64,000 bases of DNA from an uncultured Candidatus Saccharibacteria bacterium (GTDB taxonomy: Bacteria; Patescibacteriota; Minisyncoccia; Phycocordibacterales; SBAW01), in contig CAZYUH010000001.1 in assembly GCA_964650645.1 (NCBI GenBank), positions 411,032-475,031 on the forward strand, given 5' to 3'. Position numbers and translations under genes: made by a program. The first letter of the stretch is position 1. Each line of letters opens with the position of its first letter. Below, one piece after another: positions 13,560-63,850 of the stretch. The notes under the pieces were generated by a model. That model worked only from the letters and a program-made list of their open reading frames with translations. It had not been told where the DNA came from and searched no databases.

Positions 13560-13592
13560 CTCCCGTCAAATAATTGACGGGAGTTTTATTTT
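13560..13592 (+). terminator. rho-independent terminator
   Basis: ctcccgtcaa-ataa-ttgacgggag followed by ttttatttt. Confidence 0.7.
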
Positions 13593-13928
13593 GCTTAATG
13601 CGCAAAAAGCCTTATTTATAAACTCTTTTAGCCGAGATATCGGATAGGCTATACGAAAAATGCTTTTTAAATAAAGGAGTACTCGGTAATGCGATTTCAT
13701 GCTTTTTATCGGGTATGTCTTTTGAATGATTAGCGTCAATCGAAAGCGTGGCCGGTGCTAATTTTGGGCTTGATTGAGAGGGTGGCGCCGCGCTAACGCT
13801 GTTTTTATCCTTGCGCTTTTGCGGCTTATTTTCTTCACTTTTTTGACAGAAAAATAAAAAGCCCGGCTTAAAATTATTCATAACTCCGCACACGAACTTT
13901 CCGAGCAAACAAAAGATTTTTCGGCCCT

Positions 13929-34454: not shown

Positions 34455-34469
34455 GGCGGGGCGCGATGA

Positions 34470-34475
34470 TATAAT
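34470..34475 (+). promoter_or_regulatory. TATAAT -10 box 8 nt upstream of ATG
   Basis: gatgaTATAATcggcgttaATG. Confidence 0.45.
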
Positions 34476-34483
34476 CGGCGTTA

Positions 34484-40380: not shown

Positions 40381-40959
40381 ATGAAAGCCCCCAAAGGATT
40401 CACCCTCATTGAACTGCTCGTTGTCATCGCCATTATCGGCATCCTGGCCTCCATCGTGCTCGTGTCGCTTAGCAGCGCGCGCGCCAAGTCCCGCGACGGC
40501 CAGCGCATTTCAGAGCTCAAGGAGATGCAGAAGGCGCTCGAGCTGTATTACAGCGACCATGGCCGCTACCCGATAAGCACTTGCGCGGCGCCCAACAACT
40601 ACTGGACCAGCTTCGACAGTCCCACGTTCTCCCCGCGCCTCTTGTGCGCGCAGGCTTGGACCGCGGGCACAGAGACGCTCGCGCAGGAGATGGCGCAGTA
40701 TATAAGCCCCATCATGGACCCTAAGAACGTGGCGAGCGATGCGGGCTTCCTCTACGTGTCCGCCTCAAACGGGCAGAGCTACTGCTTCATGTCGCACAGG
40801 AACCCGGAGAACCTCACGAACTTCCCCTCGAACTTCATAAACCCGTACCGCTGCGGCTCGGGCAATACGACGGCGCAGTGCTCTTCGAACGGCACGGGAG
40901 GAAGCTCCGCTAACGCGATATACATAGGCACGGGCTCGTTCGCCTCCGCGGGGTGCTAA
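40381..40959 (+). CDS. type IV pilin-like protein (prepilin-type N-terminal cleavage/methylation domain)
   Basis: [39 protein letters not shown]. Confidence 0.85.
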   Translation: MKAPKGFTLIELLVVIAIIGILASIVLVSLSSARAKSRDGQRISELKEMQKALELYYSDHGRYPISTCAAPNNYWTSFDSPTFSPRLLCAQAWTAGTETLAQEMAQYISPIMDPKNVASDAGFLYVSASNGQSYCFMSHRNPENLTNFPSNFINPYRCGSGNTTAQCSSNGTGGSSANAIYIGTGSFASAGC

Positions 40960-44902: not shown

Positions 44903-45754
44903 ATGAAAACACTCAGAGAAACAATCAGCGAATACAAATCGGCGGGCAAGGCGATAGGGCATTTTAATTTCTCGGACTCCAACCAGCTCAAGGCCATTAT
45001 CGACGCTTCGCGCGAGACGGGCCTGCCGGTCATCGCGGGGCTTTCCGAAGGCGAGCGCGAATACTTCCCGCTCATGCAGGCGCGCGCGTTCGTGGAGCTG
45101 TACCAGAACCAGGGTGTCGAGGTGTACCTCAACGCCGACCACACCTACACGACCGAGAAGGTCCAGCGCGCCCTATCGGCGGGCGTTGATTCGGTGGTGG
45201 TGGACGGCGCGCATCTTCCGACCGAGGAGAACATCCGCCTGCTCGCTTCGTGCGTGAAGTACGCGCGCGCCGCCGGACGCGATGTTGTCGTCGAGGGCGA
45301 ATTGGGCTACATCGGCCAGTCCTCCAAGGTCATGGACGCTCTGCCCGAGGGCGTTACGGAGGCCAACCTGACCACTCCCGAGGACGCGAAGGCGTTCGTC
45401 GAGGCGACGGGCGTCGATTGCTTCGCCCCCGCGGTCGGCAACGTGCACGGCATGCTCAAGTCCGCGGCCCAGCCCAGGCTCCATCCCGACCACGTAAAAG
45501 CCATAGCCGACGCCACCGGCGTGCCGCTTGTCTTGCACGGCGCGTCCGGCAATACCGAGGAGGACATATTGGCCTGCATCAAGCAAGGCGTCGCCATTGT
45601 GCATATAAACACCGAGTTGAGGCTCCTGTACCGCGACAGCCTGCGCGCCTCGCTTTCGGGCGACGAGACCACGCCGTACAAGTTCCTGACGCCGGCCGTG
45701 GACGCCATGAAGGCCTACCTTGCGGGAAAGATGCGCGCGTTCGCCGGGCAGTAG
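44903..45754 (+). CDS. fba: class II fructose/tagatose-bisphosphate aldolase
   Basis: AIGHFNF..LNADHTYT..GNVHGMLK..LVLHGASG. Confidence 0.85.
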   Translation: MKTLRETISEYKSAGKAIGHFNFSDSNQLKAIIDASRETGLPVIAGLSEGEREYFPLMQARAFVELYQNQGVEVYLNADHTYTTEKVQRALSAGVDSVVVDGAHLPTEENIRLLASCVKYARAAGRDVVVEGELGYIGQSSKVMDALPEGVTEANLTTPEDAKAFVEATGVDCFAPAVGNVHGMLKSAAQPRLHPDHVKAIADATGVPLVLHGASGNTEEDILACIKQGVAIVHINTELRLLYRDSLRASLSGDETTPYKFLTPAVDAMKAYLAGKMRAFAGQ

Positions 45755-45786
45755 TGGATAATAGCCCGCGCGCACTCAGCGCCCGT

Positions 45787-45824
45787 GCCATACTTGAATG
45801 GCGCGGGCGCTTTTGCCGCATGCG
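45787..45824 (+). terminator. probable intrinsic terminator after fba
   Basis: agcgcccg..cgggcgct stem followed by tttg. Confidence 0.45.
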
Positions 45825-45872
45825 TCAGCCGTGTTGCGCGGCAGTAGCACATAATCCCAACGATATTTCCAT

Positions 45873-48485
45873 ATGAAGCATTTCCTGCGACGCGTGCGGA
45901 AGGCGGCGCGCCCGCATATTAAGAAATTCGCCGCCCTTCCCATGAAGAGCAAGGCGCTTGTTGCCGCCGCCGCGCTCGTGGTGGCCATAGGCCTTCCGTC
46001 CGCCGTCCTGCACGCGTGGACCATTTACCCTACGATGTCGTATACGACGGTCTATACCGGCGGCTACACGACCATTTCCTGGTCCGCCCCGACCTCGGAC
46101 TGGTGCCAGATTTACTACACGCAGGGGTCGGCGGCGCATATGTCGGGCGAGTCGTGCTACACGAGCAAGCTCGGGAACGTATGCGCCGTCGTGGTAAACG
46201 GCCCCAACGGAAGCGTCTCTGCCGGCCCCATAAACAGCGCGAATACGTACAACCTGTACTGCTACAACGCGTCGGGCGGCATCGGCTCGTCCGAAGGGAC
46301 CGGCTCGAGCTATATAACGGTGTACCCGACTACGCGCACCGCCACCACGCTTAACTACTTCTACGCGTCGCCGTCGTCCATTCCCTTGGGCGGCAACACG
46401 ACGCTCTACTACAGCGCCAACGCGGGCACGAGCGGCACGGGCGTGTACCTAAGCGGCTACGGGTACTTAAGCGGCTGGTCCGGGAGCCTTGCGCGCGGGC
46501 CGCTCAGCAGCAACACCACTTACTACCTGTACCTTGAAGACAGCTACTACGGCGAGACGGGGCCGTGGAATACGACCGTGACGGTGAACTCGCCCGTTAC
46601 GGCGGGCGCGTCCGCCCCGGCGAGCGTCCCGGTCGGACAGAGCGCCACGATTTCCTTCTATGCCGACAGCGCGACGCCGCCGACGCAATGCCAGATAAAC
46701 AACTACAACGATACCGTCGCGCTCCTGAACGTCCCAGGCTGCTCGTCGGCCCAGGCGCGCACGTACAACACGGGCCCGCTCAATACGCCCGGCTCGTACG
46801 CGTACAAGTTCTACTACTACCAGGGCGCGTGGGTGTACGCCAAAACGGTAACGGTCAACGTGGCGCCCAGCTGCAGCTTCGCGCCAGCCTCCGCTACTGT
46901 CCAATCGGCCGGGGATACGGCGACCCTTTCCTATTCGAGCCAGGGCGCGACGAGCGGCAGCATCGATAACGGCTTCGCGGCGCTTCCCACGGCGCCGGGC
47001 GCACCTAAGAGCGTGTATCTTACTTCGGGCACCAGCTGGACCGTGCCCGGCGACTGGAACAACGCCAACCCTTTCTCTGTCGAAGTCATCGGCGGGGGCG
47101 CGGGCGGCGGCAACGGCGCCACGGGCAATACGGGCTACACGGGTAACACCGGCTCCGGCGCGTACAGCGGGCGCGGCGGCACGGGCGGCACGGGCGGCAC
47201 CGGCGGCTACGGCGGTTCGGGCGGCGGCGGCGGCGCGTACACCAAGATTACGAACACGAGCGGCCTGACGCTGACGCCGGGCGCCTCGATTGCCGTGCGA
47301 GTCGGCGCGGGCGGCGGCGCGGGAGCGTCCGGCGGGGACACGTATTTCAACGGCGCGTCGTGCGCGGCGTCGTCCGTCTGCGCCAAGGGCGGCCTGGCCG
47401 GCGGCACGGGCGGGGCCGCGGCATCGGGCGTGCCCGCAACCAACAGCACCCGCTACTCGGGCGGCAACGGCTACCCGGGCAGCGCGGGTTCGGGCGGGTA
47501 CGGCGGCAGTGCGGGGGCGTACGGGGCAGATGGTTATTATTCGTATCCGAACGGCACCAAGGGTGCTCCGGTTTGGAATCCGCCGGTGAGCGGCGCCGGA
47601 GGCGCGGGCGGCTCCGGCGGCGCTGGCGGCGCGGGCAGGGGCGGCGGCGGCGCGGCCGGGCCGTACGGCAACGGCGGCAACGCCTCCGGTTCGACCGGCG
47701 GCTACGGCGACGCGAACCACACCTCGCCGGGCTATAACGGAACCGAGTACGGCTCGTACGGCGCGGGCGGCGGTGCGTACGGCCCGTCGGGCGCGTCCGG
47801 CAATTACGGCGCCGGGGGTGCCGGCGGCAACGGCGGCACCGGCGGCCAGGGAGGCTACGGCGGCGGCTCGGGCGGATACGGAGGCTACGGAGGCTACGGC
47901 GGGGGAGGCGGCGGCGCGGGGAGCGCCGGAAAAGGCGGGCTCATCGTCATTACCTATACGCCTGAAGTGTTCGCTTCCAGCGCTTCAGTGGCGACGCCGC
48001 CCATCAACACCAGCCCGACCACGTTCACCATGACGGTCAGCGACGCCGCATCGGGCCTCTCGGGCACCTGCTCCATTCCGGTCACCATAGACGACGCGTG
48101 CAGCGACATCTCCGGGTTCCAGCCCAACAGCTGGAACGCCTCGCCGCCCAGCGGCTGCCAGGCGGGGCCTACCTGCGTGCCGGCCGGCTACACGTACAAC
48201 GGCAGCATATGCGTCTCGTCCATACCGGTCCTCGACGCGTTCAGCGGCCCGTCGCGCGTGCGCCGCGGCAATACCGCCACGCTCACCTACACCGTTTCCA
48301 ATCCGCCGGCATCGTGCGTCATAAACGGCACGGACGGGTTCAATGCCGTGATAAGCCCGCAGGACGGCGTGCAGGGCTCGGTGACGACGAACCCCATCGT
48401 GGGCCAGACGTCCTTCAAGCTCTGGTGCAACGGCGTGTCGCAGACCGTAACAGTCAACGTCGCGCCCGAGTACCAGGAGATATAG
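45873..48485 (+). CDS. mosaic secreted protein: shared N-terminal module + glycine-rich TSGTSW..IVITYT module + shared C-terminal Cys/Ig-like module
   Basis: Basic-n-region signal MKHFLRRVRKAARPHIKKFAALPMKSKALVAAAALVVAIGLPSAVLHA; WTIYPTMSYTTVYTGGYTTISWSAPTSDWC; SVYLTSGTSWTVPGDWNNANPFSVEVIGGGAGGG..GGLIVITYTPE; C-terminal ..VNVAPEYQEI. Confidence 0.8.
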   Translation: MKHFLRRVRKAARPHIKKFAALPMKSKALVAAAALVVAIGLPSAVLHAWTIYPTMSYTTVYTGGYTTISWSAPTSDWCQIYYTQGSAAHMSGESCYTSKLGNVCAVVVNGPNGSVSAGPINSANTYNLYCYNASGGIGSSEGTGSSYITVYPTTRTATTLNYFYASPSSIPLGGNTTLYYSANAGTSGTGVYLSGYGYLSGWSGSLARGPLSSNTTYYLYLEDSYYGETGPWNTTVTVNSPVTAGASAPASVPVGQSATISFYADSATPPTQCQINNYNDTVALLNVPGCSSAQARTYNTGPLNTPGSYAYKFYYYQGAWVYAKTVTVNVAPSCSFAPASATVQSAGDTATLSYSSQGATSGSIDNGFAALPTAPGAPKSVYLTSGTSWTVPGDWNNANPFSVEVIGGGAGGGNGATGNTGYTGNTGSGAYSGRGGTGGTGGTGGYGGSGGGGGAYTKITNTSGLTLTPGASIAVRVGAGGGAGASGGDTYFNGASCAASSVCAKGGLAGGTGGAAASGVPATNSTRYSGGNGYPGSAGSGGYGGSAGAYGADGYYSYPNGTKGAPVWNPPVSGAGGAGGSGGAGGAGRGGGGAAGPYGNGGNASGSTGGYGDANHTSPGYNGTEYGSYGAGGGAYGPSGASGNYGAGGAGGNGGTGGQGGYGGGSGGYGGYGGYGGGGGGAGSAGKGGLIVITYTPEVFASSASVATPPINTSPTTFTMTVSDAASGLSGTCSIPVTIDDACSDISGFQPNSWNASPPSGCQAGPTCVPAGYTYNGSICVSSIPVLDAFSGPSRVRRGNTATLTYTVSNPPASCVINGTDGFNAVISPQDGVQGSVTTNPIVGQTSFKLWCNGVSQTVTVNVAPEYQEI

Positions 48486-48534
48486 TCCGGTGGGGATAGG
48501 GGTGCCGCCGCGCGCCCGATAGGGGCTATAGTTA

Positions 48535-48924
48535 ATGCATATGATAAAGAAAGCGCTCATCTGGGTTACCGTGCTGCTCGCGCTCATCGCGCTTTCCGGC
48601 GCGGGATATTACTACCTCGGCACGGGCGCCCCGAGCCCCGAGCCCCTGCCGCCCGCGGCGATGCCCGACAACAACGTCATAGCCGGCCCGGTCGTGAGCG
48701 CGAGCGCGCAGGGCGTCACGATAGCCAAGCAGGACGGAACGCAGGCGACGCTCAGCCTATCGGCGCAGACGCAGGTAATCGAGGCGGGGACTAACGGCCA
48801 GCCCGGCATCCAAAAGAGCGCGAGCGATATCGAGCCGGGAATGATGGTGCTGGTCACCCCGAGCGAGAGCGACGCGTCGCTCGCCGCGTTCATCGTCATC
48901 CTTCCGCCGCCGCCCATGCAGTAG
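48535..48924 (+). CDS. small membrane-anchored partner protein, type B
   Basis: TM ALIWVTVLLALIALSGAGYYY; one beta-rich domain QDGTQATLSLSAQTQVIEAGTNGQ..; related to 50419, 51131, 54470. Confidence 0.6.
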   Translation: MHMIKKALIWVTVLLALIALSGAGYYYLGTGAPSPEPLPPAAMPDNNVIAGPVVSASAQGVTIAKQDGTQATLSLSAQTQVIEAGTNGQPGIQKSASDIEPGMMVLVTPSESDASLAAFIVILPPPPMQ

Positions 48925-48941
48925 GCGCGTTCCAAGCTTGC

Positions 48942-50366
48942 ATGAAATTCCTTAAAAAACTCAAGAAGCGGGCGAACAGGCTCAAGCGAAACCAGCTAAG
49001 CGAGCTCGTTCTCATGACCGGCGCCATGGCGCTCCTGCTTGTCGTCGCCGTGTTCATGCGCCTGGGCGCGCCCCAGGTCGCCCGGGCGTTCTACATTCCG
49101 GTAACGCCGTCCTATACCCCCGTTACGACCGGCGGCTACACCACCATTTCCTGGACCGCCTACGACGCCGATTATTGCTCCATAGGCTATTACGCATCGC
49201 CGGCGGCGGGGCATCTTTCGGGCGAGACTTGCTACGGCGGGTCGATTGCCAGCTATGGAACAAAAGGGGGAGGGGGAGGAGGGACTCCGTACTGCAGCGT
49301 TATGGTCCCAGGCAGGGCCGGCCGCAGCTACAACGTAGCCGGCAGCGCGACGGCCGGCCCGATGAACGCCGCAACCACGTACAACATCGCGTGCATGAAC
49401 AGCGGCAGATGGAACTCCGGCTCCGGCAGCGCCAGCGTCACGGTCTACCCGACGCCGCGCACTCCCACTACGCTCAACTATTTCTACGCATCGCCCTCCA
49501 CCATCCCGTATAACGCCAGCGCCACGCTCTACTACAGCGGCAACAGGGGCACTGACGGCGTCGGCTTGTATCTTGCCAATTACGGCTACCTTAGCGGGTG
49601 GTCGGGCAGCATCGCGCGCGGTCCGCTTACGGGCAATGCGACCTACGGCATCTACACCGTAGACAATTACTACGGCTGGGTGGGGCCGTGGAATACGACC
49701 GTTACCGTGTCGGCCCCGGTCGCGCCCAAGGGCCCGTGCAACGACATTCCTGCCGCGACTACGCTCCCCAACGGCTGCGTTGCGCCCGCGGTGGTGCCGG
49801 GAACCTGCATCCCATCGGGCGGCAGCTATTCCGCTGGGTCCAATACCTGCTCGTGCCCGGTCGGAAAGCATTTGGAGGGTACTGCCTGCGTCGCGAACCC
49901 GCTGTGCGCCAACGGCCTCAACGATTCCTACGCGCCGTCGTGCGCGTGCCCGGCGGGCCAGTACCAGCCCGGGGGCGTCTCGTACTGCGTGGTCCTGCCG
50001 GTGTGCACCAATGGGCTGAGCGAAGCGTACTCGCCCAGCTGCACGTGCCCCGCAGGCCAGGTGCAGGTGTCCGGAGGCTCCACGTGCGTACCGAAGGGTG
50101 AAATACACAGCATGACCGCACAGCCCTCGCGCGTGCGCAAGGGCAACACCGGCACGGTGTCATGGAACACGAGCGCGATGGTCTCGTGCACGCTTAAGGG
50201 TCCCGTGAACGGCGCGATGCAGACGCTCTCGACCGAGCTGTCGGGGACGAGGACCGTCACCATAACCAACCAGTCCGTGTACACGCTCTCGTGCGCCGAC
50301 CAGTCGGGCGCGTCGTACAGCTCGACCGCCACTATAAACCTCATCCCCGAAGTCGAGGAGCTATAG
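48942..50366 (+). CDS. secreted protein sharing the N-terminal module, with Cys-rich tandem repeats and shared C-terminal module
   Basis: MKFLKKLKKRANRLKRNQL.. signal; FYIPVTPSYTPVTTGGYTTISWTAYDADYC; repeats CANGLNDSYAPSCACPAGQYQ / CTNGLSEAYSPSCTCPAGQVQ; C-terminal ..INLIPEVEEL. Confidence 0.75.
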   Translation: MKFLKKLKKRANRLKRNQLSELVLMTGAMALLLVVAVFMRLGAPQVARAFYIPVTPSYTPVTTGGYTTISWTAYDADYCSIGYYASPAAGHLSGETCYGGSIASYGTKGGGGGGTPYCSVMVPGRAGRSYNVAGSATAGPMNAATTYNIACMNSGRWNSGSGSASVTVYPTPRTPTTLNYFYASPSTIPYNASATLYYSGNRGTDGVGLYLANYGYLSGWSGSIARGPLTGNATYGIYTVDNYYGWVGPWNTTVTVSAPVAPKGPCNDIPAATTLPNGCVAPAVVPGTCIPSGGSYSAGSNTCSCPVGKHLEGTACVANPLCANGLNDSYAPSCACPAGQYQPGGVSYCVVLPVCTNGLSEAYSPSCTCPAGQVQVSGGSTCVPKGEIHSMTAQPSRVRKGNTGTVSWNTSAMVSCTLKGPVNGAMQTLSTELSGTRTVTITNQSVYTLSCADQSGASYSSTATINLIPEVEEL

Positions 50367-50418
50367 GGGTAAGGGCCGGGCGGAAGACGGGGCGGGATAT
50401 CATAACGAATAACACAGT

Positions 50419-51084
50419 ATGAACATGAACAAGAAAACGATTATAGAGGCGGCGGTCGCGGTCGCTGTTATCGCGGCGGGCGCGTTCGCGTATATGCACT
50501 ACAAGCAGGGCGCCGAGCCCGCCGCATTCGACCCCAACCTCGTAGCGCCGGCCGGCACCGTCACCGCCATCTCGCCTTCAAGCATCTCCATACGCCAGCA
50601 GGACGGCGCGCAGAAGACGTTCGCCATAGGCCCCGATACGCTCGTCATAAGCCAGGTCGCTGCTGGCGAAACAGGCAAGGGAATCAGCGACATCGCCGCG
50701 GGTACGCTGGTGATACTCAGGCCGAGCCCCGCCAATCCCGGCGCCCTCGCCTCGATTCAGATTTCGGGCGCCGGCGCGCCTCCCGCGCCCGGAACCGCGG
50801 CCGCCGCGCCGAGCGGCCCGCCCGTATCGTTCATGGGGGTGGTCGTAACGGTGAGCCCGTCCGTGCTCGTCATCAAGCCTCAGGAGCCGAATGCTGAGGA
50901 CGTCGAGGTGGCCATAACCGCCGGCACGGCCGTGCGCTCCAACGTGCTGGCGGGGCAGAAGGGTAAGACGTTTGAAGACATTGCGGCCGGAACCCCCGTG
51001 TTCGTCGCGGGCACGACGGGCGACGCGGGCGTTACCGCGAACATCGTGCAGGTGCTGGTGCCAATAGAAGAATTGGCGCAGTAG
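50419..51084 (+). CDS. small membrane-anchored partner protein, type B (two tandem beta-rich domains)
   Basis: TM IIEAAVAVAVIAAGAFAY; QDGAQKTFAIGPDTLVISQVAAGETGK is identical to a segment in 51131. Confidence 0.65.
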   Translation: MNMNKKTIIEAAVAVAVIAAGAFAYMHYKQGAEPAAFDPNLVAPAGTVTAISPSSISIRQQDGAQKTFAIGPDTLVISQVAAGETGKGISDIAAGTLVILRPSPANPGALASIQISGAGAPPAPGTAAAAPSGPPVSFMGVVVTVSPSVLVIKPQEPNAEDVEVAITAGTAVRSNVLAGQKGKTFEDIAAGTPVFVAGTTGDAGVTANIVQVLVPIEELAQ

Positions 51085-51130
51085 CGCCGTTCCCGATCCG
51101 GCGGGTCCTGGTTCGTAGGCGCTCATCCAT

Positions 51131-51784
51131 ATGAAATTGAAAGCCGTTATCATCGCCGCAGCGCTCGCCGTCCTGGCGGCCGCTGCCGGAGCCCTGTATT
51201 ACAGCGGCACGCTTAATCCATTCATGGAAATCCTCGCCGGTTTCCCGGAGCGGGATGAGCAAAAGGCGGTGGGTGCGCTGGCCGCCGTTACGCCGACCAG
51301 CGTTACTATTGCCGGACAGGACGGCGCGCAAAAGACGTTCGCCATAGGCCCCGACACGCTCGTCATAAGCCAGGTCGCTGCCGGCGAGACGGGCAAGGCT
51401 CTCGGGCAGATTCCGCTCAAGAGCCCGGTTATGATCGTTCCCGGCGCGTCCCGCACCGTTGCCGCATCCGTCAGCCTCCTTCCTCCTCTGCCGCCCGCGC
51501 CCCCTCCGGGGGCGGAAATAGTAACCACGGAGGGGGCGATGGCCTCCAAGACGGCCGACAGCATTACCTTGCGCACGGATGACGGGACGTCCGTGCGATT
51601 CCTGGTTACCGCCTCGACCTCGGTGGTGTCGAAGGTCGAGGCGGGCGGCGTGGGCGCCGGATTCGACTCGCTCGAATTCCGCGACCGCGTCAGCGCCTTC
51701 GGCGCGCGCAACGAGGACGGGAGCGTCGAAGCGCTGCAGCTGCTTATCCTGCCGCCGTCCGCCGCGGATGGCGCAAACCGATAA
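51131..51784 (+). CDS. small membrane-anchored partner protein, type B
   Basis: TM AVIIAAALAVLAAAAGALYY; GQDGAQKTFAIGPDTLVISQVAAGETGKALGQIP. Confidence 0.65.
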   Translation: MKLKAVIIAAALAVLAAAAGALYYSGTLNPFMEILAGFPERDEQKAVGALAAVTPTSVTIAGQDGAQKTFAIGPDTLVISQVAAGETGKALGQIPLKSPVMIVPGASRTVAASVSLLPPLPPAPPPGAEIVTTEGAMASKTADSITLRTDDGTSVRFLVTASTSVVSKVEAGGVGAGFDSLEFRDRVSAFGARNEDGSVEALQLLILPPSAADGANR

Positions 51785-51793
51785 TATATTTTT

Positions 51794-54451
51794 ATGAACA
51801 TCCTCAAGAAAATAAAGAAGGCGTGGCGCGGCCCTACGCGCACCCTCGCGCTCGTGCTGGGCGCCGTAGCGCTCGCGCTGTTTGTGCGCGTCGGCGTTCC
51901 CGCGATAGTGCACGCCTGGACCATTTACCCCGTTCTGTCCTACACGCCGTTCTACGCGGGGCAGTACACCACCGTTTCGTGGTCCGCGCCCACCTCCGAC
52001 TATTGCTATCTCATCGGATTCGCGCCCGGCGGCGGCACGGTCCTCTATTACGTAAACGGCTATTATTACTACAGCCCCCAGATCCTGTACGCGAACGGCA
52101 GTTATACCGTCGGGCCTGTCAGCAGCCCGTTTACGTACTACGCGTACTGCTACAACCAGTCGGGCGGCATAGGCTCTTCAGAAGGGTTCGGCACCGGCTA
52201 CGTGACGGCGTATCCGACGACCCCGACCCGCTCGACGCCCTACATAAGCGCCTCTCCGACCGGCGTTACGCGCGGCAACAGCAGCACCATATACTGGTCC
52301 ACCTCCGCCGGCAATAACTACTCCACCGGCTACCTGTTCGGCGGCGGCCTCGACGGGTACGTATCGTCGTCGGGCTCGCGCTCGACGGGCGCCCTCAACG
52401 CGAGCACGCAGTACGGCTACCAAGTGTACGATTCGTATTTCGGCTGGGAGACCCCTGCCTACGTCACGGTCGGCGCGTACAACCAGCCCGCCATGACGGC
52501 GAGCGTTACGTCGTCCGCCGGCAATGCGTCGTCGGGCGGGTCGCTCACTGTGCCGTTCGGGACCCAGCTCAACGCGAGCGCCACCTACGCCGCGGGCTCA
52601 GGCGACACGCTCACGTACTCGGTGCTCAACGTCCTGCCGCCGAGCCCCGGCGCGGAATACAACGCCAATTACACCACGCCGTACAACCAGGCCAGCCGCG
52701 CGTACTCCTTCACGCCCGCGACGCCCGGCACGTACGTCATCAAGCCGTACATCCAGACCACCTACGGCAGCGGATGGCTCAATATGCCCGGCGTCAATAT
52801 CACCGTAACGGTGCAGCCGCCCCCGCCGACGCCGGCCATTTCCGCAGCGCCCGCGACGGTCGACATGAACGGCACCTCGACGCTCGCCTGGTCCGCGACG
52901 AACCTCGCGGCAGGGCAGTGCACGCTTGCCGCGCCCTCAAGCGGCGCGGGCACGACGAACTTCGGCGCTGTCACGACCGGTTCCCGCATAGTCAACTACT
53001 ACTCGGTCAACGCCGTGGTAGACGGCTGGGCCTACAGCATGGGCGGGTACAACGGCTCCTCGTACGTGCCGACGGCCTACAAGGCGCCGGCGTCGAGCGA
53101 CCTCTCCAATAACGCGAACTGGAGCACTGCAGGCGCGATACCGACCTCCGTCGCGCTCTTCGACGAGCCGCTCTACATTAACGGCAACCTCTGGAGCTTC
53201 GGCGGCGTGGCGTTCAATACGCAGAACTGGACGAGCACCATCTGCTACGTGCCGGTAAGCGGCGGCACCTTGGGCGCCTGGAGCTGCCCGGCCTCGCTTC
53301 CGACCGGCATGGCGCAGGGCTACTCCAACCCGGTCATTATCGGCGACTACATCTACCGCTTCGGCGGCTACAACTACACCACGTACGCGGGCGGCGTCGC
53401 ATCCGTCGCGCGCGCGCCGCTGTCTTCGCCGACTAGCTGGACGAGGTACCCCAACGTGCTGCCGCAAGCGAGCGGCATGTACGCCCACGGGGTCGCCGTC
53501 ATCGGCGATTACGTCTACCTCTTCGGCGGCTATAACGGCTCCTCGTACCTCAACACCATCTACCGCGCGCCGCTAAGCTCCGACCTCACGTCGCCCTCGA
53601 GCTGGACTTCCGGCGGCGTCATTCCGTACCCGCTCATCAGCATGGGCATCGTCGTTGACGGCGATTATCTCTACCTCATCGGCGGGCACAACGGCACCGG
53701 AGCGGTCAACAGCGTCTACAACATCCCGCTTTCGACCCTGGCCGCGGGCGGTGTCACCCAGGGCTCGTGGGGCAGTTACCTCAGCCTGCCCGCCGCGCGC
53801 AACCTGCCCAAGCCGCTCATTGCGGGCGACAAGCTCTACCTCATGGGCGGCTGGCAGAACGGCGTGTACGCCAACGCCGCCTACGCGCTCCCGTTCAATA
53901 CCGGCCTGCCGTACACCACGCCCGCCAACATGCCGTGGCGCGTTACGGGCGCTCCCAACAAGGCCGTCACCTGGCCGCTGAGCGCCAACACCACGTACGC
54001 GCTCCAGTGCACCAACTCTACCGGCAGCAACTCGGCGTCCGCGGCGGTCAACATACGCGACATGTGCACCGACATCCCCGGATTCCAGAACGCACTGCCG
54101 CCGGGCTGCACCGGCCCCGTGCCGAGCCCCTCGGGCCTCTGCATCCCCGCCGGGTACATGTACGACGGCAGCGCGTGCGTCGTGGCGCCGCCGGTCATAG
54201 GAAGCTTCTTCGGCCCGTCGCGCGTGCGCCGCGGGAGCACGGCCACGCTCACGTACCTTGTCTCCAACCCGCCGGCCTCGTGCTCCATTACCGGCACCAA
54301 CGGCTTCAGCGCGTCGGTGAGCCCGGTAGACGGCGTGCAGGGAACCGTCACGACGGATCCCATCACGGCAAACACCGTGTTCACGCTCGATTGCGACGGA
54401 GTGAAGAGCGCGGCGACGGTCGGCATCACGCCGGAGTACCAGGAACTGTAA
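51794..54451 (+). CDS. secreted mosaic protein with Kelch-type beta-propeller and shared N- and C-terminal modules
   Basis: MNILKKIKKAWRGPTRTLALVLGAVALALFVRVGVPAIVHA; WTIYPVLSYTPFYAGQYTTVSWSAPTSDYC; Kelch-like blades GDYIYRFGGYN.., GDYVYLFGGYNGSS.., GDYLYLIGGHNGTG.., GDKLYLMGGW; C-terminal DMCTDIPGFQ..GITPEYQEL. Confidence 0.8.
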   Translation: MNILKKIKKAWRGPTRTLALVLGAVALALFVRVGVPAIVHAWTIYPVLSYTPFYAGQYTTVSWSAPTSDYCYLIGFAPGGGTVLYYVNGYYYYSPQILYANGSYTVGPVSSPFTYYAYCYNQSGGIGSSEGFGTGYVTAYPTTPTRSTPYISASPTGVTRGNSSTIYWSTSAGNNYSTGYLFGGGLDGYVSSSGSRSTGALNASTQYGYQVYDSYFGWETPAYVTVGAYNQPAMTASVTSSAGNASSGGSLTVPFGTQLNASATYAAGSGDTLTYSVLNVLPPSPGAEYNANYTTPYNQASRAYSFTPATPGTYVIKPYIQTTYGSGWLNMPGVNITVTVQPPPPTPAISAAPATVDMNGTSTLAWSATNLAAGQCTLAAPSSGAGTTNFGAVTTGSRIVNYYSVNAVVDGWAYSMGGYNGSSYVPTAYKAPASSDLSNNANWSTAGAIPTSVALFDEPLYINGNLWSFGGVAFNTQNWTSTICYVPVSGGTLGAWSCPASLPTGMAQGYSNPVIIGDYIYRFGGYNYTTYAGGVASVARAPLSSPTSWTRYPNVLPQASGMYAHGVAVIGDYVYLFGGYNGSSYLNTIYRAPLSSDLTSPSSWTSGGVIPYPLISMGIVVDGDYLYLIGGHNGTGAVNSVYNIPLSTLAAGGVTQGSWGSYLSLPAARNLPKPLIAGDKLYLMGGWQNGVYANAAYALPFNTGLPYTTPANMPWRVTGAPNKAVTWPLSANTTYALQCTNSTGSNSASAAVNIRDMCTDIPGFQNALPPGCTGPVPSPSGLCIPAGYMYDGSACVVAPPVIGSFFGPSRVRRGSTATLTYLVSNPPASCSITGTNGFSASVSPVDGVQGTVTTDPITANTVFTLDCDGVKSAATVGITPEYQEL

Positions 54452-54469
54452 CCGCATAGGAATACGCAT

Positions 54470-55126
54470 ATGAAACTGAACATGAAATCGAAGCCCGTCA
54501 TCGCCGCGCTCGCGCTTGCCGCAGTGGCGCTCGTCCTCGCCGCGCTGTACTTCAGCGGCGCCTTCAAGCCCCGCCAAGCAACGGTCCAAGGATTGCCGCA
54601 CGTGTTCGGTACGCTGGTCGCGGCGACTCCTTCGAGCGTCACGATTGCTGACGAGCACGGCAAGCCCGTTACCCTGAGCGTGAACGCCGGAACCCAGGTC
54701 ATTACCCAGGTTGGGGCGGGCGAGAAAGGCAGGACGCTGGAGCAGATTCCCCTGCAAAGCCGGGTGGTGGTTGTCCAGGATGCGGCGGATAAGACCGTCG
54801 CTGCGAGCATCAGCCCGCTTCCGGCGCCTCCCATGCCCACCCAGGGAATCATGCTTACCAGCGCGGAAGGCACGGTGCTCTCCAAGGCCGCCGACAGCTT
54901 CATGCTCCAGAAGGACGACGGGACTCCCATAAAAATAACGGTCAGCGCCTCGACAAAGGTGCTCTCTAATGTTGCGGCAGGGGAGGAGGGTAAGGGGTTT
55001 GATTCAATCAAGGCCGGCGACCGCGTGGGCGTCGTGGGCACGCTCGATGCGGGCGTCAGCATCGACGCCGTGCAGCTGCTCGTGCTGCGCCCCGTTATCG
55101 CCGCTTCTTCAAGCCCGGCGCTCTAA
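54470..55126 (+). CDS. small membrane-anchored partner protein, type B
   Basis: TM VIAALALAAVALVLAALYF; two beta-rich domains (..ADEHGKPVTLSVNAGTQVITQVGAGEKGR..; ..KDDGTPIKITVSASTKVLSNVAAGEEGKG..). Confidence 0.65.
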   Translation: MKLNMKSKPVIAALALAAVALVLAALYFSGAFKPRQATVQGLPHVFGTLVAATPSSVTIADEHGKPVTLSVNAGTQVITQVGAGEKGRTLEQIPLQSRVVVVQDAADKTVAASISPLPAPPMPTQGIMLTSAEGTVLSKAADSFMLQKDDGTPIKITVSASTKVLSNVAAGEEGKGFDSIKAGDRVGVVGTLDAGVSIDAVQLLVLRPVIAASSSPAL

Positions 55127-55192
55127 GGCGCGCAGCGCTCCTGCGTGAAAGGCGAATGGGGATAGCGGCGGCGCTCACGCCCGCTCCGGCCG

Positions 55193-55198
55193 TACAAT
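55193..55198 (+). promoter_or_regulatory. TACAAT -10-like box 6 nt upstream of ATG
   Basis: ccgTACAATagccgtATGaagcg (similar to the element at 31961). Confidence 0.35.
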
Positions 55199-55204
55199 AG
55201 CCGT

Positions 55205-56623
55205 ATGAAGCGCTTTTTAAGGAAGGTCAGGAAAGTGAAATTGAGCCGGGTCCAGGAAATCGCTCTTTTGTGCGGCGCAATGGCCCTGCTTATCATGGCG
55301 GCGGTATTCGTAAGCGGCGGCGGCATGGAGCGCGTCGCGCGCGCGGTCGCGACGGGCGGCATTTCGCCCTGGTCGCAGACGGCGAGCATCTTCCCGTGCT
55401 CCTGGACCGGCAACTGCAGCCCGACCTCTGCCAGCAATGTGTACGGTTTTTCCGCGAGCCCGACTTCGGTTGCAGCAGGCCAAGCCGTTACCTTGGCGTG
55501 GACTTCTGCGAGGGAAGTCGGGGGGAGCTTCATCCCCGCATGCCAGGGCCCTTATGCGACCGGCAAGACGTACAATATGCACTGCTACATTTACCCGGGC
55601 GGCGCTGAGGTATACACCGGAGACATTTCCGGCGGCGTGACGGTGTATCCTGCGGCGGGCACTAACACGTATACCTTCTGCTCCCAATTCATGCAGGATC
55701 AGGGATACCCCTGCCTCAATGCGACCGTTGTTGCTGCCGCGCCGCCGCCCGTCATTCCGACGACCCTCGCCTTCGCAGCGGTCCCGACTTCGGTCCAGAG
55801 CGGAAGCCCGGCCTCGCTCTCGTGGACGGGCGTTAAGGGCACGAGGTTCTCCGCCTGCCGGCTGGTCGGCGGGCAGTGGGGCGCGAGCGGCGCGTGGTTT
55901 ACCGCGCATCCGGGGAGCATCAGCACCTCGCCGCTCACCACTACGACCACCTACAATATGGCCTGCTACGACACTGACGGAGCTTCCACTCCGTGGAGGA
56001 GCGCGACCGTGACCGTCACCGCTCCCGCAGGTCCTGACATCTGCACCGACGTCCCTGGCGTGCAGAACAGCGTGCCCCCCGGGTGCGCGGGCCCGGTGCC
56101 GAGCCCTGTGGGCACCTGCGTTCCGAGCGGCTCGACCTACGACGGCAGCGCGTGCGTGCCCTTGCCCGTGTGCACGGGCGCGCACCAGGTAGGTACGCCG
56201 CCCAACTGCGCGTGCGACGTCGGCTACCAGATGCAGGGCGGCTCCTGCGTGCAGATGCAGTGCCCGGGCGCGCACGAGGTCAATTGGCCCGCATGCTCGT
56301 GCGAAGCGGGATATGTGCGCGACGCGGGCACGAATGCCTGCGTCCGCGAGCCCAAGCTGGATATCACCGTTAACGGGCAGGAGGCCGTACGCGTGCGCCG
56401 CGGCAGCGATGTAACCGTCGCCTGGAGCGCCACGGGCGTGACCGCCGGCTCCTGCCGCGTTACCACTAATACCGGTGCCACTCTGGCATCCGCTGACTCG
56501 GGCTCCCAGGCAGCGACCGTAGACCACCAGACTACCTACACGCTTTCGTGCACTAACGATGCCGGGTCTGGGGTTTCAAAAGAAGCGAACGCCACCCTCA
56601 TTCCCGAGGTTATCGAGCAGTAG
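55205..56623 (+). CDS. secreted protein with shared C-terminal Cys/Ig-like module
   Basis: MKRFLRKVRKVKLSRVQEIALLCGAMALLIMAAVFVSG signal; DICTDVPGVQNSVPPGCAGPVPSPVGTCVPSGSTYDGSACV; ..RVRRGSDVTVAW..; C-terminal ..TLIPEVIEQ. Confidence 0.75.
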   Translation: MKRFLRKVRKVKLSRVQEIALLCGAMALLIMAAVFVSGGGMERVARAVATGGISPWSQTASIFPCSWTGNCSPTSASNVYGFSASPTSVAAGQAVTLAWTSAREVGGSFIPACQGPYATGKTYNMHCYIYPGGAEVYTGDISGGVTVYPAAGTNTYTFCSQFMQDQGYPCLNATVVAAAPPPVIPTTLAFAAVPTSVQSGSPASLSWTGVKGTRFSACRLVGGQWGASGAWFTAHPGSISTSPLTTTTTYNMACYDTDGASTPWRSATVTVTAPAGPDICTDVPGVQNSVPPGCAGPVPSPVGTCVPSGSTYDGSACVPLPVCTGAHQVGTPPNCACDVGYQMQGGSCVQMQCPGAHEVNWPACSCEAGYVRDAGTNACVREPKLDITVNGQEAVRVRRGSDVTVAWSATGVTAGSCRVTTNTGATLASADSGSQAATVDHQTTYTLSCTNDAGSGVSKEANATLIPEVIEQ

Positions 56624-56805
56624 GGGAGCGCAACGGCAAAGATTGAAGGAGGGGCCGGCGCCAGCCGGCCCCCTTCGGTTGCGGATACGGGACAAATCGG
56701 CTATACGAGCCTCGACGCCCATATACCCGTCGCTCGCTCGGAAACAAGCCCCTGGGGCTTGTTTCTCCCGCTTCGCTAGGGTATAGTGGGCGCACACTTA
56801 TATAT

Positions 56806-57450
56806 ATGGAACTTACCGTAGAAAAGCGCGGCCAGGAGGCGAAGCCGAAGGCGCTCCGCGACAAGGGCGTCATGCCGGCCGTCGTGTACGGCCGCTCGGA
56901 GGAGCCGGCCTCTGTCGCCGTGGACCTCAAGGCCTTTTCCAAGCTCTACAGGCAGGCGGGCGAGTCCTCGGTCATCACCCTCAAGGGCCTCGGCGCCGAC
57001 AAGCAGGTGCTTATTCACGACGTGGCATTCGACGCCGTGTCCGGCGCGCCCATCCATGCCGACTTTTACGCCATCCAGAAGGGCCAGAAGGTGACCGTAT
57101 CCGTTCCCTTCGAGTTCGAGGGCGTCTCGCCGGCCGTGAAGGACCTCGGCGGCATCCTCACTAAGGTTATGCACGAGCTCGAGATTACCTGCGAGCCTGC
57201 CGACCTCCCGCACGCCATAAAGGTGGACATCTCCAAGCTCGCTACGCTCGATGACCAGATAAAGGTGGGCGACCTGGCGCTTCCCAAGGGTGCCGAGGTG
57301 TCCGTAGACGCCGACGAGGTCGTGGCCATGGTATCGGTAGCGCAGGAGGAGACCGAAGAGGCCGCTCCCATGGACATCTCCCAGATAGGCGCCTCGGTAG
57401 AGCGCGGCAAGAAGGAGGAAGACGCCGCCGAAGGCGACTCGAAAGAGTAA
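56806..57450 (+). CDS. rplY: 50S ribosomal protein L25 / general stress protein Ctc
   Basis: MELTVEKRGQEAKPKALRDKGVMPAVVYGRSEEPASVAVD..; acidic C-terminal tail. Confidence 0.9.
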   Translation: MELTVEKRGQEAKPKALRDKGVMPAVVYGRSEEPASVAVDLKAFSKLYRQAGESSVITLKGLGADKQVLIHDVAFDAVSGAPIHADFYAIQKGQKVTVSVPFEFEGVSPAVKDLGGILTKVMHELEITCEPADLPHAIKVDISKLATLDDQIKVGDLALPKGAEVSVDADEVVAMVSVAQEETEEAAPMDISQIGASVERGKKEEDAAEGDSKE

Positions 57451-58947: not shown

Positions 58948-59778
58948 ATGAAAAAGATGCGCGGCTTCACGCTCATTGAGCTCCTGGTGGTTATAGCCAT
59001 TATCGGCATACTGGCCTCCATCGTAATCGTGTCGCTTGTCAGCGCGCGGCAGAAGGCGCGCGTTTCGGCGGGCAAAGCGCAGGATGCGAGCATGCGCAGT
59101 GGAATGAGCGACAGGCTTTCCGGAGAGTGGGCCTTCAACGAATGCGCGGGCACGACAGGCGCCGATACCTCCGAGTCGGGCAACACCGCCACGCTCGGCA
59201 GCCCTGTCTGGTCGACCGATACGCCGTACGGCACCGGATGCTCGATAGAGTTCGGCCCGTCTACCTACATGTACACGGCCGCTCTTATCGACAATCCGCA
59301 GGTATTCACCATAAGCATCTGGTTCAAGACCTCTGTCGCATCGGGCGCGCGGCTTATGGGCTTCGCGTCGCTTGGCGCCTGGAGCTATGACCGCCAGCTT
59401 CATATGGGTACGAACGGATTGGTGTACTTCGGATGGTATGACAGCGGCAACGTCAGGTACGTGGCCTCAAGGGGCGCCCTCAACGATGGCCAGTGGCACC
59501 TGGCCGTCGCCACGTTCAGTAACGGTACCGGATCGCTCTACATAGACGGAGCTCTGCAGGGAACGCTTTCGGCAGGATTGGCTGAGAACTATAGCGGGTA
59601 CTGGCGGGTCGGCTACGGGCCGATGTCCGGGTGGCCTGGGGGAGCCGACGGCTCCTTCCTGGGCCTCTTGGACGACGCGCGCCTGTATACAAGCGCCATT
59701 TCTGCCGCTGAAGCACAAAAGCTGTACGCCGCAGGGCCGGGCGCCGAGGCGCCCCTGGGCCCGGTCGCCGCGCGCTGA
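58948..59778 (+). CDS. type IV pilin-like protein with C-terminal LamG/concanavalin-A-like lectin domain
   Basis: [38 protein letters not shown]; ..[33 protein letters not shown].. typical LamG strands. Confidence 0.8.
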
Positions 59779-63774: not shown

Positions 63775-63850
63775 GCCGCCTTAGCTCAGTTGGTAGAGCA
63801 ACTCTTTTGTAAAGAGAAGGTCCCCAGTTCAAGCCTGGGAGGCGGCTCCA
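63775..63850 (+). tRNA. tRNA-Thr (anticodon UGU)
   Basis: 76-nt cloverleaf: acceptor gccgcct/aggcggc, D-arm gctc..gagc, anticodon loop tTTGTaa, T-arm cccag-ttcaagc-ctggg, encoded CCA. Confidence 0.8.

Follow-up and report, generated by a model that had tools for sequence, protein, structure and literature searches.

Exported proteins built from Ig-like sandwiches with ligand-binding inserts are exemplified by SiiE of Salmonella, the Marinomonas ice-binding adhesin and GhpA of Aureispira, which are the best structural matches of the large proteins described here. The small proteins of the same locus recall extracytoplasmic OB-fold proteins such as the DUF5666 family (PF18914) and B. subtilis YobA (PDB 4qy7). 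In the LPXTG/sortase, PEP-CTERM/exosortase, MYXO-CTERM and T9SS CTD systems, as in our case, a short motif stands at the C-terminal end of exported proteins. The T9SS CTD, too, has the fold of an Ig-like sandwich. To our knowledge, T9SS is not expected in CPR bacteria. We studied a gene cluster in a 64,000-nucleotide stretch of DNA from an uncultured Candidatus Saccharibacteria bacterium (the window). With a probability of about one half, it is a lineage-specific CPR surface-protein locus that encodes adhesin-like large proteins and membrane-anchored OB-fold partners.

Gene layout and synteny

An ORF check of the window confirmed the eight-gene cluster described in an earlier note. All ORFs lie on the + strand at 45873-56623, with gaps of 9-78 nt and a GC3 of 0.78-0.89. 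Four mosaic exported proteins (L1-L4) are interleaved with four N-anchored small proteins (S1-S4):

45873..48485, + strand: L1, 870 aa; terminal Ig-like domain 48219-48461; tail APEYQEI, 48462-48482
48535..48924, + strand: S1, 129 aa; N-terminal TM anchor, one OB-fold (DUF5666-like) domain, Pro-rich end
48942..50366, + strand: L2, 474 aa, core family member; tail IPEVEEL, 50343..50363
50419..51084, + strand: S2, 221 aa; TM anchor and two OB-fold domains
51131..51784, + strand: S3, 217 aa; TM anchor and two OB-fold domains
51794..54451, + strand: L3, 885 aa; terminal Ig-like domain 54185-54427; tail TPEYQEL, 54428-54448
54470..55126, + strand: S4, 218 aa; TM helix and two OB folds
55205..56623, + strand: L4, 472 aa; terminal Ig-like domain 56357-56599; tail IPEVIEQ, 56600-56620

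The cluster is flanked by genes for fructose-bisphosphate aldolase and ribosomal protein L25, and this site is fixed in syntenic relatives, where it holds 1-3 large genes per locus. The 474-type gene (L2) is the only large-gene type found at all syntenic loci. Gene orders, given as protein lengths (aa), are:

window: 870-129-474-221-217-885-218-472
L001: 132-455-219
L003/L005: 240-578-123
L004: 909-211-212-901-134-468
L010: 127-489-210-574

These orders bear on whether the two kinds of protein work together. They could instead be independent envelope proteins whose adjacency reflects co-expression only, a reading to which we give a minor but appreciable chance. Relative L009, with a large gene but no small gene at the aldolase-L25 site, is in its favour, as is the large:small stoichiometry, which differs between loci and is not strictly 1:1. 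Against it, the pairing put forward in the earlier note recurs in related genomes: large and small genes are interleaved at five of six distinct syntenic loci with the window counted (four of the five others). Moreover, the single-domain S1-type gene, single-copy at each locus with small genes, always abuts a 474-type gene, and an HMM of the small proteins found members only at aldolase-L25 loci in the ~250 kb of related sequence searched.

Modular architecture of the large proteins

Module sharing among the four large proteins, also proposed earlier, is highly significant in BLASTP (E down to 2e-62). The N-terminal ~240 aa of L1 and L2 are 49% identical (E 2e-62), those of L1 and L3 42% (E 2e-37), those of L2 and L3 34% (E 6e-20) and those of L1 and L4 just 27% (E 2e-8). 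L1 and L3 share 58% identity over the C-terminal ~145 aa (E 2e-43), L3 and L4 46% over the CTDIPG module (E 6e-19), and L2 and L4 30% over their full length (E 3e-43). At the DNA level, all shared modules are 63-82% identical. Together with the gene orders, these sequence comparisons support a family of mosaic, copy-number-variable exported proteins with modules swapped among its members; the locus would expand and contract by duplication and module shuffling at the fixed aldolase-L25 site. The main modules outside the signal region are:

47007..47966, + strand: L1 glycine-rich domain (aa ~379-698; phmmer without bias filter)
49083..49712, + strand: two N-terminal Ig-like sandwiches of L2 (aa 48-168 and 177-257; AF2 pLDDT about 85-93)
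49725..50075, + strand: Cys-rich middle of L2 (aa 262-378; low AF2 confidence)
50076..50342, + strand: terminal Ig-like domain of L2 (aa 379-467; two conserved Cys, RVxxG start)
53333..53902, + strand: Kelch repeats of L3 (best Pfam stretch, aa 514-703)

In L1, a long basic N-region and a hydrophobic helix are followed by two N-terminal Ig-like domains, another Ig-like module, the glycine-rich domain, a CSDISG Cys module, the terminal Ig-like domain and the tail. For L1, Pfam returned no hit. Its glycine-rich domain starts with YLTSGTSWTVPGDW..VEVIGGG and ends with GLIVITYTP. Window ORFs 31975-33861 and 34484-36547 contain Gly_rich_2-like domains of this type, which share TSGTSWTVP.DW..EVIGGG, GGGGGAYTKITN..LTPGA, GGDTY and GIIVITYT with the L1 domain; ORF 31975-33861 itself scores 23.9 bits with Gly_rich_2 (PF21722), just below the gathering threshold of 24.3. 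In L3, N-terminal Ig-like domains precede a Kelch beta-propeller (PF24681, 58.3 bits, cut-off 50; PF01344, 35.6 bits, cut-off 20.1), a CTDIPG Cys module and the terminal Ig-like domain. DNA repeat family D8 marks five Kelch blades between 53018 and 53869. L4 has the same signal type and a distinct Cys-containing N-module (SPWSQTASIFPCSWTGNCS), also found in homologues P0012, P0013, P0018 and P0020, followed by an Ig-like domain, a CTDVPG module, EGF-like repeats and the terminal Ig-like domain.

The AF2 model of L2 contains three Ig-like sandwiches. Its Cys-rich middle comprises a CNDIP..GC..C module and CxNGLxxSYxPSCxCPxGQ repeats; across long evolutionary distances, no part of L2 is better conserved (68-81%). 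An EGF_LRP2 match in homologue P0019 supports the EGF-like reading of these repeats. No sequence match to Pfam Ig families was found for the large proteins, nor to PDB chains for a terminal-domain profile. The Foldseek matches are Ig/FN3 arrays in SiiE, ice-binding adhesins, the grappling hook GhpA and S-layer protein 7ptp, all of them surface proteins. By this likeness of fold, the large proteins may be adhesin-like or ligand-binding surface proteins.

The earlier note had also considered effectors with immunity or chaperone partners. The interleaving of large and small genes and their mosaic evolution would suit secreted toxins following polymorphic-toxin logic. Yet searches of Pfam, NCBIfam, PADLOC and PHROGs revealed no domain of a toxin, nuclease, peptidase or other enzyme. 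Nor do the small proteins resemble cytoplasmic immunity proteins, since their OB folds are extracytoplasmic and tethered by a TM anchor. In addition, the pattern of variation is the reverse of that in polymorphic toxins: in the L2 lineage, the first N-terminal Ig-like domain diverges fastest (80% identity between close strains versus 97-100% in the rest), whereas the C-terminal domain stays conserved. We consider this role highly improbable.

Signal region and anchoring

The extended signal region of L2 is:

48942..49088, + strand: L2 extended signal region (aa 1-49)

It consists of a basic segment (MKFLKKLKKRANRLKRNQ), a ~20-aa hydrophobic helix and VARA|F. The pattern M-x-x-F-[FL]-K-K-[IV]-K-K ... 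E-[LI]-A-x-L-C-G-x-x-A-L-L-L recurs across homologues. By the -3/-1 rule, a putative cleavage site follows VARA in L2, and the large proteins would be exported by Sec with cleavage at a conserved V-x-A|W/F.

In the AF2 model, N-terminal helices span residues 3-11 and 16-41; at about 20-26 residues, the hydrophobic helix is a long one. The large proteins might therefore stay N-anchored, with no need of a partner. This favours the independence of large and small proteins, the former being kept either by the uncleaved helix or by the terminal Ig-like domain and tail. Beyond this helix, we found no known membrane anchor, LPXTG or T1SS signal in the large proteins. Since they have no membrane anchor of their own, under our preferred reading it is probably the OB-fold membrane proteins, presumably co-expressed, that retain or arrange them at the envelope.

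Small anchored proteins

S1-S4 are paralogues, as proposed earlier, the others being 33-36% identical to the 129-aa S1. They are remote homologues of DUF5666 (PF18914, 14.6 bits, below the cut-off of 27). In S4, a Pro-rich linker (LPAPPMP) connects the two OB folds:

54491-54553, + strand: TM helix (aa 8-28)
54599-54817, + strand: OB fold 1 (aa 44-116)
54854-55087, + strand: OB fold 2 (aa 129-206)

In structure comparison, the OB folds come closest to OB domains that bind nucleic acid, but the resemblance is only generic. To that extent the likeness agrees with large and small proteins being independent, the OB-fold proteins then acting otherwise at the membrane surface, for instance by binding glycan, peptide or nucleic acid.

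S2 (50599-50679) and S3 (51317-51397) do share an identical 27-aa stretch. However, its 81 nt carry 5 synonymous differences and the 117 nt around it are merely 82% identical, so that the patch is locally conserved or converted. This divergence speaks against a very recent duplication, which the earlier note had read from the patch, as does the identity of only 63-82% between shared modules at the DNA level.

The C-terminal tail

A regular expression applied to all six-frame ORFs of the window found C-terminal PE(V/Y)xE only in the four large ORFs. On alignment, all 22 family members, which were gathered by overall homology and not by tail, have P(-6) and E(-2). The general form is [ILVTA]-P-x-x-x-E-x-COOH. 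Hence the proposed fixed tag is real. By contrast, the terminal "module" is not dedicated but represents a single copy of an Ig-like repeat that is uncurated and very widespread (11,436 cluster representatives). This repeat occurs mostly in internal tandem arrays, which reach 42 copies. The tail is specific to the terminal position, being present on 8 of 23 terminal versus 25 of 1,445 internal repeat copies (Fisher p 1e-8). Among the best 150 repeat representatives, 10 end in the tail (0.27 expected by chance) and 9 others have a hydrophobic segment within their last 45 residues; at least some of these segments are classical anchors (hydrophobic-plus-basic) at the extreme end, where anchoring signals sit. 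The terminal Ig-like domain and flexible tail may form a retention or assembly element.

The signal suspected earlier is therefore position-specific, but not private to the operon: tail-bearing proteins occur in unrelated lineages (L006, L007, L008, L011 and L012) with no DUF5666-like neighbour. This wide distribution again favours independence. Since L009 also has no small gene, the small proteins are unlikely to be an obligatory tail receptor, and the receptor or processing enzyme is probably another protein. If large and small proteins do interact, this cannot be what the tail generally serves for.

The tail could also be a beta-strand that each subunit donates to an Ig-like domain of the following one, by a donor-strand exchange like that of chaperone-usher pili and type V pili, the large proteins then being fibre or lattice subunits or S-layer blocks. 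In the L2 model the tail is unstructured and lies outside the fold; its alternation (P-x-hydrophobic-x-E-hydrophobic) resembles the first strand of Ig repeats in tandem arrays (P-x-I-x-S-F), and the fold matches include an S-layer protein. On the other hand, all three L2 Ig domains are modelled complete, with high confidence and no obvious strand gap, the tail is only 6-7 residues long, and Pfam and NCBIfam scans found no usher-, chaperone- or protease-like gene in the cluster. The four paralogues also differ greatly in size and inserts, which is unusual for such subunits. Overall, a fibre or lattice is quite improbable.

Comparison with known systems

Apart from Kelch in Pfam, no match emerged from Pfam, NCBIfam, PDB sequences, PADLOC, PHROGs or the papers covered. 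The earlier statement that nothing characterised matches thus holds for the combined architecture and not for its pieces, which are partly known (Kelch, Gly_rich_2-type, EGF-like and DUF5666-like).

Compared to Gly_rich_2 proteins, the glycine-rich domain of L1 is embedded between Ig-like domains of a tail-bearing protein. Compared to DUF5666 and YobA, the small proteins have a TM anchor, Pro-rich linkers and a fixed genomic association with large proteins. Family tails such as IPQTIEQ and VPDTIER superficially resemble [IL]PxT sortase motifs. However, unlike known sorting signals, the tail has no downstream hydrophobic segment or basic cluster, usually only one residue following the invariant Glu, and NCBIfam sorting-signal models do not match the cluster proteins. 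Here the terminal domain is not specific to the C-terminus; only the tail is, and it sits where related repeat proteins carry classical anchors. Finally, the large proteins are far shorter than modular Ig-like adhesins, with 3-5 Ig domains; they carry Kelch, Gly-rich and EGF-like inserts, end in the P-x-x-x-E-x tail and are encoded alongside membrane-anchored OB-fold proteins.

Organization of the gene cluster

Eight open reading frames, all on the + strand, occupy the positions assigned to them in the earlier note, with four large mosaic exported proteins (L1-L4) interleaved with four small N-anchored proteins (S1-S4):

45873-48485 (+): L1, large protein of 870 aa, glycine-rich domain in the middle
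48535-48924 (+): S1, small protein
48942-50366 (+): L2, large protein of 474 aa, Cys-rich repeats in the middle
50419-51084 (+): S2, small protein
51131-51784 (+): S3, small protein
51794-54451 (+): L3, large protein of 885 aa, Kelch propeller in the middle
54470-55126 (+): S4, small protein
55205-56623 (+): L4, large protein of 472 aa, Cys-rich repeats in the middle

The variable middles described from the sequence were thus recovered. Third-position GC is 0.78-0.89 in the cluster genes and intergenic gaps are 9-78 nt. A promoter scan returned 0 promoter-like sites, and terminator-like sites were no more frequent than at the shuffle level. Directly after the last cluster gene, ahead of the L25 gene, a GC-rich inverted repeat (GGGGCCGGCGCCAGCCGGCCCC, 56650-56680) may indicate where the transcription unit ends; it was not called as a terminator because it lacks the T-run that the scan requires.

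Pairwise BLASTP confirmed the sharing of modules among L1-L4, with blocks far above chance. Over the N-terminal ~240 residues, identity is 49% between L1 and L2 (E 2e-62), 42% between L1 and L3 (E 2e-37), 34% between L2 and L3 (E 6e-20) and merely 27% between L1 and L4 (E 2e-8). The C-terminal ~145 residues of L1 and L3 are 58% identical (E 2e-43), and the CTDIPG Cys module is 46% identical between L3 and L4 (E 6e-19).

S1-S4 are paralogous, as proposed, and the identical 27-aa stretch reported for two of them is present in S2 and S3. The very recent duplication read from it does not hold in the DNA: the 81 nt of the patch carry five synonymous differences, the enclosing 117-nt segment is only 82% identical, and all shared modules show 63-82% DNA identity. 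Hence, the duplications are not recent, and the patch is either strongly constrained sequence or an old conversion tract. Among metagenomic proteins, P0180 matches S2 in its N-terminal half and, past the shared QDGAQKTFAIGPDTLVISQV patch, is identical to P0179, the nearest relative of S3 in that set. This switch suggests that P0180 is a recombinant of two tandem paralogues, probably fused by unequal recombination through the conserved patch.

The repeats were also considered as DGR targets. This was rejected: 45500-57000 holds no template/variable repeat pair, all repeats there being paralogous modules, and the mismatches in the 81-nt patch are not restricted to adenines. No reverse transcriptase was seen among the subset of window ORFs scanned. 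Prophage and defence-system readings were likewise rejected.

Architecture of the large proteins

In Pfam, NCBIfam, PADLOC and PHROGs, the eight proteins matched known families only through the Kelch region of L3 and sub-threshold small-barrel hits. The L3 Kelch scores exceed the Pfam cut-offs (PF24681, 58.3 bits, cut-off 50; PF01344, 35.6 bits, cut-off 20.1), and five repeated blade units are seen in the DNA. The L1 insert is homologous to window ORFs 34484-36547 and 31975-33861, with which it has all its non-glycine anchor motifs in common (phmmer without bias filter). With the default bias filter L1 does not match Gly_rich_2 (PF21722), and ORF 31975-33861 reaches 23.9 bits for a cut-off of 24.3.

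The N-terminal region is kept across homologues as a basic M-x-x-F-[FL]-K-K-[IV]-K-K segment, followed by E-L-A-x-L-C-G-x-x-A-L-L-L and V-[HY]-A|W. Such a pattern is consistent with an extended Sec signal and a signal-peptidase I site, at which cleavage is predicted. In the AF2 model of L2, obtained with 17 homologues at a mean pLDDT of 71, residues 3-41 form an N-terminal helix, and three Ig-like sandwiches are modelled with confidence (48-168, 177-257 and 382-467). The Cys-rich middle is poorly modelled, and the C-terminal tail, a P-x-x-x-E-x motif ending each large protein, lies outside the fold. Foldseek comparison of the model with the PDB retrieved Ig/FN3 domain arrays of surface proteins, including the GhpA grappling hook, an S-layer protein, and the SiiE and ice-binding adhesins. 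The Cys repeats are of the EGF-like type, with a match to EGF_LRP2 in a distant relative. Among close strains, divergence is fastest in the first Ig domain (80% identity versus 97-100% elsewhere), and over long evolutionary distances the Cys-rich middle is the best-conserved part.

A donor-strand fibre or lattice, with which the strand-like pattern of the tail is compatible, appears improbable, given that the Ig folds are modelled as complete and that no assembly genes were found in the cluster.

The small proteins are remote DUF5666/OB-fold relatives

In the AF2 model of a small protein (pLDDT 77 overall, ~90 in the domains), a TM helix is followed by two barrels on a Pro-rich linker. Both barrels have the features of an OB fold, in which five strands close into a beta-barrel and a short helix joins strands 3 and 4. 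The positive-inside N-terminus and the TM helix show that the small proteins are extracytoplasmic. S4 scores 14.6 bits (E 0.041) against Pfam DUF5666 (PF18914), below the gathering score of 27 bits, and S1-S3 have no match to this model. When the small-protein alignment was compared by hhalign with P0199, which scores 51.5 bits on Pfam DUF5666 and is a bona fide member, a probability of 97.1% (E 5.2e-11) was obtained over 145 aligned columns covering both domains. The small proteins are therefore remote relatives of DUF5666. The small-protein profile retrieved nothing useful from PDB sequences, and the few papers mentioning DUF5666 do not appear to assign it a function.

These results bear on the suggestion that the large and small proteins are effectors and their immunity partners. 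Such a role, raised as an option in the earlier note, is contradicted by three observations: no toxin or enzymatic domain turned up in the Pfam, NCBIfam, PADLOC and PHROGs searches, the C-terminus is conserved, and the OB-fold proteins are external. We regard it as highly improbable.

Distribution and synteny of the locus

Only 22 relatives of L2 were found in the database search, one of which was located in a Candidatus Adlerbacteria bin by genome scan. The family occupies the same site in five further distinct contigs, with a PfkB kinase/fructose-bisphosphate aldolase pair on one side and ribosomal protein L25 on the other.

Gene order between aldolase and L25 in retrieved contigs, as protein lengths in aa
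L001: 132-455-219
L003/L005: 240-578-123
L004: 909(Kelch)-211-212-901-134-468
L009: 555 alone
L010: 127-489-210-574

With an HMM run against all ORFs of the window and the 12 retrieved loci, small-protein members were found solely in the syntenic clusters. The small genes occur in five of the six distinct syntenic loci, window included, and wherever they occur a single-domain small gene adjoins a 474-type gene. Their absence from paralogous loci, which the earlier note had named as counting against its proposal, is therefore not observed, save in L009.

The main rival explanation holds that the large and small gene sets are functionally independent. It is favoured by L009, where a large gene stands without a small one, by the wider distribution of the tail, and by the long N-terminal helix, possibly an uncleaved anchor of the large proteins. 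Set beside the distribution of the small genes, it appears unlikely.

Other features of the window

The window resembles a CPR genome in its type IV pilin genes, in the packing of housekeeping genes between large surface proteins and in a 6,001-aa ORF:

12572-13928: ~1.35 kb upstream of the giant ORF, lower GC (0.57), no convincing coding frame by GC3 and no Rfam match
13929-31934 (+): single ORF of 6,001 aa
31975-33861 (+): Gly_rich_2-like protein, 628 aa
33858-34454 (+): small anchored protein
34484-36547 (+): Gly_rich_2-like protein with two Gly-rich domains, 687 aa
36548-37114 (+): small anchored protein
40381-40959 (+): type IV pilin-like gene
58948-59778 (+): type IV pilin-like gene
63775-63850 (+): tRNA-Thr (TGT); no other RNA gene was detected in the window

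In the 6,001-aa ORF, an HTH_17-like segment at the N-terminus scores 25 bits, just under cut-off. LVIVD repeats lie around aa 2446-2580 (192 bits), and a 'chaperone of endosialidase' domain, Peptidase_S74 (50 bits), is found ~300 aa before the Pro/Glu/Ala-rich end. This domain is phage-tailspike-like, an auto-processing module carried here by a giant cellular surface protein. Close to the syntenic locus in L003 there is a smaller protein (861 aa) with LVIVD and S74.

Region 31975-37114 forms a second arrangement of large exported and small anchored proteins. Its two small proteins are paralogous, ~190 aa long and N-anchored, and both end in ...W(Q/K)FI; they have no Pfam match and are unrelated to the OB-fold proteins. 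The two pilin-like genes, which flank the eight-gene cluster at a distance, have near-identical prepilin leaders, and the second has by eye a putative LamG/concanavalin-like C-terminal domain.

A terminal Ig-like domain and a position-specific tail

A profile built on the C-terminal ~89 residues, comprising the Ig-like domain just before the tail, was searched against 1.84 billion cluster representatives (E <= 0.001). It matched 11,436 proteins, mostly tandem arrays with up to 42 copies. Hence, what had been described as a C-terminal module is a single copy of an Ig-like repeat that is very common. No Pfam or NCBIfam model scores above threshold on this repeat, and it matches no PDB sequence.

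On the other hand, the conserved C-terminal motif itself stands. L1-L4 end in APEYQEI, IPEVEEL, TPEYQEL and IPEVIEQ, respectively, and among all six-frame ORFs of the window only these four have a C-terminus of this form. P(-6) and E(-2) are invariant in 22/22 members chosen by overall homology; further family tails include IPQTIEQ, VPEFEEQ, VPDTIER and VVPLVREL. Among the best 150 of the 11,436 representatives, 10 end in P-x-x-x-E-x for 0.27 expected (p 3e-13), and in the same set the motif follows 8/23 terminal domain copies versus 25/1,445 internal ones (Fisher p 1e-8). Mostly, one residue follows the Glu, apart from a few outliers that run past it (EPGSPGC, EPSGD, ERPHRRRIRRR). The tail was also found on unrelated contigs.

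Tails on unrelated contigs
L006: IPKFQEI
L007: IAPIWQEF and IIPTWQEF, two neighbouring genes (716-2404 and 3720-5144)
L008: VPIFNEQ and VPLVREL, two adjacent genes (6012-7406 and 7935-9593)
L011: SPTMYET
L012: KPVFVEF

The invariant Pro and Glu, the terminal enrichment and the occurrence on unrelated contigs establish the tail as a real, position-specific C-terminal signature in several lineages, and not as a private tag of this operon. One tail-bearing gene of the L007 and L008 pairs encodes a TPR protein. Given these neighbouring pairs, the tail-bearing set reaches beyond the family described here, and several members per genome are possible. The small-protein HMM detected no DUF5666-like neighbour on any of the contigs listed.

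In 9 other representatives, again among the best 150 of 11,436, a hydrophobic segment lies near the C-terminus, and at least some of these are classical hydrophobic-plus-basic anchors at the extreme end. The tail thus sits where anchoring signals normally sit, since sister repeat proteins carry their C-terminal anchors there. Three tandem-Ig-repeat representatives (P0026, P0085 and P0139) end in F(L/F)P(H/D)T(F/V)(W/F/L)GWL, a hydrophobic stretch and basic residues, which would make a putative LPXTG-like C-terminal anchor with an unusual motif.

Tentatively, the tail on the terminal Ig-like domain might be a previously undescribed TM-less C-terminal sorting, anchoring or assembly signal used in several lineages besides this one, a reading that we consider possible and well short of probable. 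It could be a docking peptide, or a transpeptidase/peptidase recognition site from which the short variable segment after the invariant Glu is removed. If the tail is such a signal, the Adlerbacteria OB-fold proteins would be part of the same envelope-attachment apparatus. Searches of NCBIfam and of the literature on DUF5666, CPR sorting signals and Patescibacteria/Adlerbacteria surface proteins turned up no account of either the tail or the family.

A model for the locus

The domain architecture is established, the genes lie tightly spaced on one strand, their synteny is conserved, copy number varies, and modules are exchanged. Our best explanation, to which we assign a probability of about 0.5, is that the large proteins are Sec-exported, adhesin-like surface proteins. 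Their Kelch, Gly-rich, EGF-like and variable first Ig heads would bind different ligands. The presumably co-expressed membrane-anchored OB-fold proteins would tether or organise them, a role proposed because the large proteins have no recognisable anchor. The terminal Ig domain and tail would act as a general retention or assembly element, the receptor or processing enzyme presumably lying elsewhere.

A life attached to host cells is generally assumed for CPR/Patescibacteria. To our knowledge, almost nothing is known of the proteins that mediate this contact beyond the Saccharibacteria pili. The locus provides concrete contact candidates. At its fixed site it encodes rapidly reshuffled, copy-number-variable exported proteins of Ig-like domains, whose binding heads differ, and the co-inherited family of membrane-anchored OB-fold proteins makes up a second candidate set. 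In addition, some of the exported proteins in several lineages can be recognised by the tail, a simple and searchable signature. Should it serve in sorting or anchoring, it would reveal a route of envelope attachment where proteins show no classical anchor motif, and metagenomes could then be used to predict surface proteomes. Should it do no more than cap the last Ig domain structurally, the locus would be an ordinary family of adhesin-like genes.

Comparison with known systems

The tail does not conform to LPXTG, PEP-CTERM or T9SS signals: the sequence does not continue into a hydrophobic segment or a basic cluster, and the terminal domain is not specific to the C-terminus. LPXTG-type sortase signals consist of a pentapeptide, a hydrophobic segment of ~20 aa and a positively charged end. 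In contrast, the window proteins have PEVEE and PEYQE rather than [LI]PxTG, stop one residue past the invariant Glu with no such segment, and have no NCBIfam match. PEP-CTERM/exosortase substrates combine Pro-Glu-Pro with a TM helix and an Arg-rich cluster, whereas the window tail has P-E, no third Pro, TM helix or basic cluster, and no NCBIfam match. The T9SS CTD (Por_Secre_tail, TIGR04183-type) is a beta-sandwich of ~80-100 aa found solely at the extreme C-terminus; the window terminal domain has no NCBIfam or Pfam match and also occurs as the 1,445 internal tandem copies among the best 150 of 11,436 representatives.

Polymorphic toxins carry a variable C-terminal toxin with a cytoplasmic immunity protein encoded immediately downstream, unlike this cluster, where the C-terminus is conserved and the small proteins are TM-anchored and extracytoplasmic. 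Chaperone-usher and type V pili rely on an incomplete Ig fold lacking a strand and on a dedicated usher, chaperone or processing protease. The L2 Ig domains are modelled as complete, and Pfam and NCBIfam reveal no usher or chaperone homologue in the cluster. The closest likeness is to modular Ig-repeat surface adhesins, whose way of working the system would share, although it falls outside any curated family. Two additions set this locus of adhesin-like mosaic surface proteins apart, a co-inherited family of anchored OB-fold proteins and a TM-less C-terminal tail.
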